A stretch of 64,000 nucleotides of DNA from Escherichia coli (GCF_050920415.1 NZ_CP169309.1); one strand, 5' to 3'. Positions 3,001-6,000 are shown, numbered from the stretch's first letter. Made by a program: the numbers.

Positions 3001-6000
3001 AACCCTACGCCCCACTTGTTCATCGCCCGACTCTCTTATGTTGTGTTGTGATGAGCAAAGCGTGCCAGAAGGTTAACCAAACATTAAAGAATAAAAAAAG
3101 ATTGGCTATAACTTGTGGGTATATGTTGGGGGATTAAAAAGGCGGAAGAAATCCGCCTCATATTGCTGACAAAGTGCGCTTTGTCCATGCCATATGCGGC
3201 GCGAACGCCTTATACGGCCTACAAAAGTTTGCAAATTCAATAAATTGCAGAATTCATGTAGGCCTGATAAGCGAAGCGCATCAGGCATTTTTGCTTCTGT
3301 CATCGGTTTCAGGCTAAAGGAATCTGCCTTTTTCCGAAATCATTAATACAGTTTTTTCGCGCAGTCCAGCCAGTCGCCTTTGAACGGACGCTTCATGTTT
3401 TCGATAGCGTCGATGATGTCGTGGTGAACCAGCTGTTCGTTCTGGATACCTACACAACGACCGCCGTAACCTGCCAGCAGCAGTTCAATGGCGTAAGCAC
3501 CCATACGGGAAGCCAGAATACGGTCGTAAGGCACCGGAGAACCACCGCGCTGAATGTGGCCCAACACAGTTGCACGGGTTTCACGACCAGTTTCTTTCTC
3601 GATGAAATGCGCCAGTTCGTCAACATCACACATGTGTTCGGTAATTGCCACAATGGCGTGTTTCTTACCTTTCGCGATACCCGCTTTGATTTCATTTACC
3701 AGGTCATCACGGCTGAATTCAACTTCCGGAACCACGACGAATTCACAACCACCGGCGATGGCCGCAGCCAGCGTCAGATCGCCACAGTAACGCCCCATCA
3801 CTTCCACCACGGAAATACGCTGGTGAGAAGAAGAGGTGTCACGCAGGCGGTCGATCGCTTCTACAACGGTGCTCAGCGCAGTGAAGAAACCGATAGTGTA
3901 GTCAGTGCCTTTGATGTCGTTGTCGATAGTGCCCGGCAGGCCGATGCACGGGAAGCCCATTTCGGTCAGACGCATTGCACCCATGTAGGAACCGTCACCG
4001 CCGATAACCACCAGCGCGTCGATACCACGTTTTTTCAGGTTTTCGATAGCCACGGCGCGGATGTTCTCGTCGCGGAATTCCGGGAAACGCGCAGAACCGA
4101 GGAACGTACCGCCACGGTTGATCATGTCAGACACGCTGTAACGGTCTAGCTGTACCATACGGTCTTCATACAGACCCAGATAGCCGTCATAAATACCCAT
4201 TACTTCCAGACCTTCTGTCAGCGCAGAACGAACAACCCCGCGAATTGCGGCGTTCATGCCTGGCGCATCACCGCCGCTTGTCAACACACCGATTTTCTTA
4301 ATCATGACTACCTCTGAACTTTGGAATGCAAAATGAAATCTGTTGCCGGAAGTCTTCTTGCACATCGAAGTGATCCAACGAATGTGCAAATAGTATAACA
4401 ATCACTTCCTGCTGAATTGATTCAGGTCAGGCCAAATGGCGGTATTTTATACACAAAATGCGGGTCTGGCTCTCTTTTATACTGATTATGAAAGCATAGA
4501 CCGTTTACCCTCCCTGGGTACGACGGAACAAGGATCCTGATGGATAATCACATCCGATCCCGGAAAACGCCGTAAAATAGCCTGCTCTACCTGATCCGCC
4601 ACCATATGTGCCTGAACCAAAGGCAGAGAGTCTTCCATTTCCAAATGAATCTGAATAAAGCGGGTCGGCCCTGACTGCCGCGTGCGAAGATCGTGAGCGC
4701 CGCTAACACCCGGCCAGGAAGTCACGATATCAATAATTTCTTGCCGTTCCTCATCAGGTAATGCGCGATCCAGTAATGACTGTACCGCCTCATATCCCAT
4801 GCGTAACGCGCTATATAAAATATAGATGCCGATTCCCAATGCAAACAGAGCATCGGCGCGATGCCAGCCGTACCAGGACAACCCCAGCGCCAGCAGAATT
4901 GCGCCGTTCATCATAACATCAGACTGGTAATGTAGCATATCAGCCCGCACCGCCTGGCTTTGCGTCCGGCGCACCACCCACCGCTGAAACGAGACAAGGA
5001 TAATCGTACAAATTAGCGCCACAATTGTCACGATAACCCCGACGCCTGGATCTGTCATCGGTGTTGGAGATACCAGATGTTGAATACCCATCAAAAACAG
5101 GAATAGTGCCGAACCGGAGATAAACATACTTTGCGCCAGCGCCGCGAGGGACTCAGCTTTACCGTGACCAAACGAGTGATTATCGTCGGCAGGTTGCAGG
5201 GAATATCGCACCACCAGTAAATTCGTCAACGACGCGCCGATATCCACCAGCGAATCCACCAGCGCGGCGAGAATACTCACCGACCCGGTATACCACCATG
5301 CAAAAATTTTAATCAGCAATAGCAGCGAAGCCATCGCCGTTGCAGCAATCGCCGCCCGACTGACCAGCCGTCCATAAGATTGATTCATAAATACTCCCGC
5401 TATCAACTGACGGTAGTATAACGGAAGCAAATCATCTGCAATGCATTAAGCAGTAGGCAAATTGAGGATAAAAAAAACCCCCACATCATGTGGGGGAAGA
5501 CAGGGATGGTGTCTATGGCAAGGAAAACAGGGTTTACTACTGGGAACGTGAGTTGCTACTACTCAATAGCTTCAACGATGAACTTTTTTGCCATTGCGTC
5601 ACGTCGCGCAACTGCTCCATTCGTTGTTGATGTTTCTCGTTTAAAACCGCTTGCTGCTCCGGCGTTAACAGGCGATACATTTGGTTGCGGACTTTTGCCA
5701 TCTCAACCTGGCGAGCAATTTGCTCATTCGCCATTTTTTCTGCCTGTGCGCGCACAGCGTTTTCATCAAAATTTTCTGCGGTGACAAGGCGATGCATTGT
5801 CTCCAGTTCGCTAACATTAACAGGAGGCTGTTCGTGCCGGGCCTGTTGCATAAGATCTCGCATCTGCTGACGCTGATGTTCGGTTAAACTTATGCCGTCG
5901 AACATATGGCTCTGCGTACTGCGCTGCGTAAGTTCTTCACCCGGATGCCAGTTATCGCCTGAACCGACTTCAGCAGCGTGGCTTAATGAACTGACTGCCA

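Follow-up and report, generated by a model that had tools for sequence, protein, structure and literature searches.

The gene context of cpxP

The window, by which we mean the whole 64-kb stretch of DNA analyzed here, is part of the chromosome of E. coli. According to the list of open reading frames (ORFs) and the RefSeq and K-12 annotations, its minus strand carries cpxP, then fieF and pfkA, and its plus strand carries cpxR and cpxA. The features under consideration are collected in Table 1. The ORF finder takes the first ATG of an ATGATG pair as the start of cpxP and the K-12 annotation takes the second, at 6037; the stop codon, TAG, occupies 5539-5537 on the minus strand. Past the stop, the minus strand reads UAAACCCUG UUUUCCUUGCCAUAGACACCAUCCCUGUCUU CCCCCACAUGAUGUGGGGG UUUUUUUU. 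Two plus-strand ORFs over the site (5488-5784 and 5490-5630) were dismissed as antisense artefacts inside cpxP.

Table 1. Features of the cpxP/cpxQ locus, in window coordinates.
Feature	Position	Strand	Basis or remark
fieF, next gene downstream of cpxP, same strand	4486..5388	minus	ORF list, K-12 annotation
47-nt core, full identity with attP of WPhi and other P2-like phages; bacterial attachment site, empty in the window	5467..5513		phage search
cpxP 3' UTR, 67 nt, first base past the stop through last U of the run	5470..5536	minus	sequence and K-12 alignment
CpxQ small RNA, 58 nt, UUUUCCUUGCCAUAGACACCAUCCCUGUCUUCCCCCACAUGAUGUGGGGGUUUUUUUU	5470..5527	minus	K-12 alignment, own covariance model
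U8 tail: transcription stop, expected Hfq-binding 3' end	5477-5470	minus	sequence; Hfq role from literature
Predicted terminator hairpin, 8 bp (6 G-C), 3-nt loop UGA	5496-5478	minus	predicted fold
Loop polymorphism at CpxQ nt 42 (mid-loop): A in the window, C in K-12	5486	minus	outside the stem
31-nt core, CpxQ nt 1-31	5497..5527	minus	near-invariant across Enterobacterales, among listed loci
Predicted small stem-loop AGACA/UGUCU, 5 bp, 7-nt loop CCAUCCC	5498..5514	minus	minimum-free-energy fold
5' seed, CpxQ nt 4-11, UCCUUGCC, including U7 and C11	5517..5524	minus	RNAduplex pairing with K-12 cfa
Putative RNase E processing site, between CCCUG and UUUUCC	5527..5528	minus	5' end from K-12 annotation; processing from PMC9438474, PMC6755755
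cpxP coding sequence	5537..6040	minus	ORF list; RefSeq name cpxP; protein from 6037 equals K-12 CpxP
Divergent cpxP/cpxRA promoter region, 149 nt	6038..6186		100% identity to K-12
CpxR box GTAAAACAACGTAAA	6117-6131	plus	exact GTAAA-N5-GTAAA, inside the cpxP-cpxR intergenic region
cpxR	6187-6885	plus	ORF list; two-component system driving cpxP/cpxQ transcription
cpxA	6882-8255	plus	ORF list; cpxR and cpxA region together 6187..8255

The CpxP protein, the CpxR protein and the cpxP-cpxR intergenic region are all identical to their K-12 counterparts, and CpxA differs from that of K-12 at three residues. Relative to the annotated start of cpxP the CpxR box is 80-94 nt upstream, and relative to the start of cpxR, 56 nt; the exact GTAAA-N5-GTAAA motif occurs only once within the 64-kb window. 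With a unique box and with the intergenic region and CpxR unchanged from K-12, expression of the small RNA gene cpxQ, which occupies most of the cpxP 3' UTR, is predicted to be under the control of CpxR via the cpxP promoter. An initial annotation of this DNA had pointed out the box upstream of cpxP and had described the locus as apparently intact; judged at the sequence level, the cpxP/cpxQ locus is indeed intact.

The cpxP terminator and its correspondence with CpxQ

A hairpin begins 40 nt past the cpxP stop codon. Its arms, CCCCCACAT (5496-5488) and ATGTGGGGG (5486-5478) on the minus strand, are exact reverse complements of 9 nt each, but the innermost pair cannot form because only a single base (G5487) lies between the arms. 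The strong hairpin and U-run that the initial annotation had placed after the cpxP stop on the minus strand are therefore present, with a stem of 8 bp closed by a UGA loop instead of the full 9-nt arms. The element also extends one base further than first proposed, to 5470 rather than 5471, as the U-run is 8 long. Taken together, the GC-rich stem, the short loop, the U-run that follows immediately and the position downstream of a gene are those of an intrinsic (rho-independent) terminator. A strict scan for such sites over both strands of the 64 kb (a perfectly paired stem, 8 bp or longer and including 6 or more G-C pairs; a loop of 3-8 nt; then a run of 7 or more T) returned the cpxP 3' site as its sole match on either strand, and the same scan found no site in 100 sequences simulated from the window with a first-order Markov model. 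The fold of the 71-nt UTR has a free energy of -17.4 kcal/mol (z = -2.4 relative to shuffles). All 5 pairs of the small stem-loop AGACA/UGUCU that is predicted next to the terminator are invariant in orthologues, so covariation is uninformative, for or against it.

Along the minus strand from 5527 to 5470, 57 of 58 nt match the ncRNA cpxQ (b4716, 58 nt) of the RefSeq annotation of K-12 MG1655. The placement is also that of K-12 relative to cpxP and fieF: the element is on the cpxP strand, in the cpxP 3' UTR, and fieF comes next. CpxQ of K-12 (b4716) and of Salmonella Typhimurium shares with the window its position (9 nt past the stop), its 58-nt length, the seed, the terminator stem and a parent promoter controlled by CpxR. 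The one difference from K-12 CpxQ is the terminator-loop base, C in K-12 and here the commoner A, from which no functional difference would be expected. The 58-nt sequence of the window is found identically in 4192 of 5424 E. coli complete genome records (77%); for the K-12 allele the figure is 899 of 5421. Loop A is also present, with the same stem, in other Enterobacteriaceae genera. The window CpxQ represents the majority E. coli allele and probably the older one. A phage origin of the loop A allele was considered and found unnecessary, since A also occurs in other Enterobacteriaceae genera without an adjoining integrase gene.

We conclude, with a probability that we put at about 0.94, that the cpxP 3' UTR also serves as the gene of CpxQ, an Hfq-dependent small RNA, and that this is the intact cpxQ locus of the E. 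coli chromosome. The element is an already known, curated small RNA, and there is no novelty in its recognition. In how it is made and how it acts, CpxQ resembles SroC, SdhX, NarS and MicL-S, which are likewise released from mRNA 3' ends, share the terminator of the mRNA, carry a 5' monophosphate and have a seed near the 5' end (PMC9438474). These RNAs nevertheless derive from other parent genes, have other regulons and sequences, and are unrelated to CpxQ.

Conservation, predicted target pairing and proposed processing

Orthologues were sought with a DNA pattern drawn from the core, CCTTGCCA-N8-10-CCCTGTCT, using one genome per species. The pattern fixes 16 core bases, and the sample it yields describes conservation where the element exists rather than the frequency of its absence. 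At least 120 stretches matched, and about 66 among the matches listed sit just past a cpxP homologue (CpxP identity 36-98%). The cpxP-linked matches listed belong to Enterobacteriaceae, Erwiniaceae, Yersiniaceae, Hafniaceae, Pectobacteriaceae and Morganellaceae; the remaining ones listed were set aside as chance matches in unrelated phyla. A covariance model was constructed from 33 of the orthologues, all of them from families other than Enterobacteriaceae (Morganellaceae, Yersiniaceae, Hafniaceae, Pectobacteriaceae and Erwiniaceae). Searched against the window, it gave a single full-length match, at 5470-5527 on the minus strand, with 86.1 bits and an E value of about 4e-18, the next best match scoring 13.9 bits. 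The cpxP 3' UTR had initially been named as the expected source of CpxQ, and both this match and the 57/58 nt shared with b4716 bear that out. Failure to align with CpxQ had been given as the outcome that would speak against it, and the alignment with K-12 cpxQ covers all but one of the 58 nt.

Conservation is distributed unevenly along the element. The 15 core positions that the pattern leaves free are identical in 62-65 of the 65 listed cpxP-linked loci, and CpxQ nt 1-31 are nearly unchanged in listed loci even though the identity of the CpxP protein drops to 36-45%. The 60 nt upstream of CpxQ have a median identity to the window of 65% (65 listed loci). The terminator behaves differently from the core. 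Its stems fell out of register in a MAFFT alignment of the orthologues, and per-sequence folding and a model-based alignment were used for them instead. All 57 unique orthologous sequences listed fold into a terminator hairpin, of 5-9 bp and with 21 different stems, and U7-U9 follows the hairpin in all listed orthologues. In the model-based alignment, 5 pairs are changed on both sides (33 cells), and none of 500 shuffles reached the observed number of cells paired, the number of cells changed on both sides or the covariation score. Pairing of the terminator stem is kept through compensatory changes.

These data bear on a simpler view of the site, in which it is the intrinsic terminator of cpxP and nothing else, any short RNA left over being a decay fragment without a function of its own. 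Every cpxP mRNA needs a terminator, the hairpin with its U8 is a textbook one, and the window offers no sign of trans-acting activity. For termination, a stem with a U-run would suffice, yet the 31 nt ahead of them are near-invariant beside a stem that varies freely (21 versions), and among the listed loci this invariance of the core holds across the order while identity in the adjoining coding sequence is about 65%. Regulation of targets has moreover been shown in published experiments with deletion, overexpression and compensatory mutation (PMC4817254, PMC6755755, PMC10250213), and the seed pairs with cfa at a validated position, as described below. We regard a terminator without an RNA function as very improbable, and retain CpxQ as the reading of the site.

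Repression by CpxQ is reported for nhaB, skp, agp, ydjN, fimA and cfa; either the initiation of translation is blocked or decay by RNase E is promoted, and the 5' end of CpxQ acts as the seed (PMC9438474, PMC4817254, PMC6755755, PMC10250213). The seed of the window is identical to that of K-12 and invariant in all listed orthologues, although nt 5-11 are fixed by the search pattern. RNAduplex pairs CpxQ nt 4-11 with the K-12 cfa 5' UTR and places C11 opposite G(-135), a pair that has been validated by compensatory mutation (PMC6755755). The duplex has an energy of -28.4 kcal/mol compared with -19.0 +/- 2.6 kcal/mol for shuffled seeds, none of 300 being as good. For nhaB, the best duplex over the whole mRNA was no better than those of shuffled seeds (146/300 as good) and hence was not used as support; the published site in the nhaB coding sequence appears only when the duplex search is confined to it. 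A search of PMC4817254 and of a 2024 fatty-acid preprint returned no seed or pairing details.

The predicted cleavage context, between CCCUG and UUUUCC, is identical to that of K-12. Some 3'-UTR small RNAs, for example MicL and DapZ, have internal promoters, and CpxQ might likewise be an independent gene, transcribed from a promoter of its own inside the end of cpxP and not a product of processing. Promoter prediction gives no sigma-70-like site on the minus strand from 5528 up to the cpxP start, which fits an origin by processing. Published work describes CpxQ as a very stable RNA that RNase E, aided by Hfq, releases from the cpxP mRNA and that naturally carries a 5' monophosphate (PMC9438474, PMC4817254, PMC6755755, PMC10250213), and its UUUU start is a poor initiating sequence (PMC10250213). 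An internal promoter is accordingly hard to credit, and we favor release of CpxQ from the cpxP transcript.

By analogy with the published K-12 and Salmonella experiments, the course of events in the source strain, from control of transcription through processing by RNase E and binding of Hfq to repression of targets, would be as follows. Phosphorylated CpxR would bind the GTAAA-N5-GTAAA box and activate the cpxP promoter, and transcription would end at the hairpin-U8 terminator (5496-5470). RNase E, assisted by Hfq, would then cut the cpxP mRNA 9 nt past the stop, between 5528 and 5527. The product would be a stable RNA of 58 nt that bears a 5' monophosphate and that Hfq would hold via the terminator and the U-tail. 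Its single-stranded 5' seed, UCCUUGCC together with bases next to it, would pair with mRNAs such as those of nhaB, skp, cfa, agp, ydjN and fimA, and this pairing would lead to a block of translation or to decay by RNase E.

Rfam models and the phage attachment site

A search of Rfam or with a covariance model had been proposed from the outset as a check on CpxQ. Our own covariance model matched the site, as reported above, and the Rfam half of the proposal yielded no counterpart. Rfam 15 has no CpxQ family. When the whole window was scanned with gathering thresholds, no match fell at the cpxQ site, and on the sense strand a permissive search of 5380-6200 turned up nothing beyond terminator-like noise (NsiR1 20 bits, RyhB 19 bits). 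There is a match to Hrs1 (RF02628) at the site, with 44.5 bits against a gathering score of 56.4, on the plus strand and thus antisense to cpxP. Hrs1 of Erwinia amylovora is located between cpxP and fieF on the strand of both genes, has a rho-independent terminator, depends on Hfq and has been detected in Erwinia by RNA-seq and Northern blot (PMC4070566). From this location, shared strand and terminator we take Hrs1 to be the Erwinia orthologue of CpxQ; it was reported as 74 nt, compared with 58 nt for E. coli CpxQ, and without being recognized as CpxQ.

Once reverse-complemented, the Rfam consensus can be aligned with CpxQ, and the alignment includes CCUUGCCA...CCCUGUCU. The RF02628 consensus starts with A7 followed by a hairpin, that is, a terminator read backwards, and the model scores above threshold in four Erwinia/Pantoea loci, again on the strand opposite to cpxP. 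RF02628 appears to have been built on the wrong strand, as a reverse complement. Its score below threshold in the window results from a model that is narrow and reverse-complemented, and is not a sign of unrelated sequences. Rfam-based annotation is unable to detect CpxQ, which may explain why sampled RefSeq E. coli records, in contrast to curated K-12, have no cpxQ feature. The strand problem is a matter of annotation and adds no new biology.

The same DNA has a second, unrelated use. It serves as attB for WPhi, L-413C, fiAA91-ss and other Peduovirus, and the 47 nt of the attP core correspond to the window, with 47/47 identity between 5467-5513 and WPhi as well as many Peduovirus records. In the window the site is empty, as fieF follows cpxQ directly with no prophage. 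Among E. coli genomes, the 58-nt query was found at about 670 more places than there are records, and three places are on plasmids. One such plasmid is a circular P2-like phage genome of 32 kb, in which a 42-nt identity adjoins the phage's own integrase gene. In the lysogen K_EC180, integrase, repressor and cox genes are found about 120 nt past an intact cpxQ. Position 4104392 of MG1655, in an older coordinate version, presumably falls inside cpxQ, given an offset of roughly 2 kb between coordinate versions. It is the position given for the WPhi and L-413C site by Nilsson et al. (2011, PMC3448106), who make no mention of cpxP.

The identity of the 47-nt core with the attP of WPhi and many P2-like phages, along with a P2-type integrase gene next to cpxQ in 9 of the 64 listed species loci, raises the question of whether conservation of the site is due to its use by WPhi-type P2-like phages and not to RNA function. 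The two regions overlap only in part: nt 1-31 make up the invariant portion, and the phage core runs over nt 15-58 and 3 nt more. The seed (nt 4-11) is outside the phage core, and the terminator stem, which is inside it, is the very part that differs between families. We know of no reason for hosts to conserve an attachment site, and integrating phages usually choose conserved RNA genes. An explanation of the conservation by phage integration is to our mind scarcely tenable, and the function of CpxQ as an RNA remains our explanation.

A search of the literature returned no paper linking cpxP with P2-like integration sites, and in a broader search CpxQ did not occur together with attB or WPhi among the matches listed. 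The classic WPhi attachment site can now be given a name, the 3' part of cpxQ, and cpxQ joins the small-RNA genes used by integrating phages; the naming is again a matter of annotation that adds no new biology. Edwardsiella hoshinae and one Pantoea carry a stem of the E. coli type, unlike their relatives. Whether the overlap of cpxQ with a WPhi-type attachment site has biological consequences that the searchable literature has not described seems to us doubtful. Any consequences in lysogens are not directly applicable to the window, where the site is empty. If such consequences exist, stress-induced read-through from cpxP would go antisense into the integrase gene in lysogens, integration would rebuild CpxQ with a terminator and Hfq module supplied by the phage, and phage integration could spread one version of the terminator between genera.

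The WPhi-type attachment site within cpxQ

A 47-nt stretch of the window, overlapping cpxQ, the small RNA gene derived from the cpxP 3' untranslated region, is an exact match to the attP core of WPhi and of many other P2-like phages. The 3' part of cpxQ is therefore the attachment site of these phages, and in this window the site is empty. Across 5424 E. coli records, the cpxQ match occurs in about 670 surplus copies, which suggests that roughly one in eight E. coli genomes may carry a lysogen at this site. At the other end of the locus, cpxP opens with tandem ATG codons; the ORF finder takes the first (167 aa), whereas the K-12 annotation starts at the second (166 aa). 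An E. coli isolate from a bullfrog (NZ_CM184353.1, H87) carries a cpxQ only 91% identical (5 differences in 58 nt), a divergence far above that of every other record listed.

Features in the window and at loci of other species
Feature	Location	Position (strand)
attP core match	window	5467-5513
RF02628 (Hrs1) match	window	5470-5542 (+)
RF02628 matches	L086	5697-5771
	L097	1298-1373
	L029	3725-3799
	L022	360-430
cpxP tandem ATGATG	window	6035-6040
locus with E. coli-type terminator stem-loop, Edwardsiella hoshinae	L080	2914-2981
locus with E. coli-type terminator stem-loop, Pantoea sp. 1.19	L062	3279-3346
cpxQ, Yersinia artesiana	L017	409-478
Other gathering-score Rfam matches:
ES222	window	57675-57782 (-)
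SECIS_3 (selenocysteine insertion element)	window	27865-27923 (+)
naRNA4 repeat	window	8270-8346 (+)
naRNA4 repeat	window	62279-62363 (-)
STnc370	window	55717-55785 (-)
ES036 element	window	3224-3265 (+)
ES036 element	window	33010-33052 (-)

Hrs1 and the annotation of cpxQ

The Rfam family RF02628 (Hrs1) is the CpxQ orthologue of Erwinia. Its model matches the strand opposite cpxP, both in the window and at four Erwinia/Pantoea loci, and its consensus starts with A7 followed by a hairpin, which is a terminator in reverse reading; the original Hrs1 paper placed hrs1 on the cpxP strand (PMC4070566). Rfam is therefore without a working CpxQ family. No RefSeq feature underlies the 58-nt cpxQ match in the E. 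coli genomes listed (H21-H49 and H76-H87), a re-sequenced MG1655 record among them; the curated record NC_000913.3 does carry an ncRNA cpxQ. The absent family may explain the missing features, because the RNA is undetectable by Rfam-based annotation.

Terminator stems and integrases in other genera

The E. coli-type terminator stem-loop recurs exactly in E. hoshinae, where it is additionally accompanied by ATC, the end of the WPhi core, and in Pantoea sp. 1.19. Stems differ in their relatives (E. ictaluri and other Pantoea), and the shared stem could be a relic of earlier phage integration and excision, or could reflect convergence. The E. coli-type 47-nt core is also present in 15 Yersinia phage records, whereas cpxQ of Y. 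artesiana, the sole Yersinia sampled, has a different stem (GCCCUCC/GGAGGGC), in agreement with the remark that sequenced Yersinia hold no matching attB for L-413C, a P2-like phage (PMC3448106). P2-type integrase genes or remnants directly follow cpxQ at L016, L065, L085, L003 (Photorhabdus), L013, L021, L032, L089 and L093. The terminator stems of these species differ from that of E. coli, which implies that there are related phages whose cores are variants of their own.
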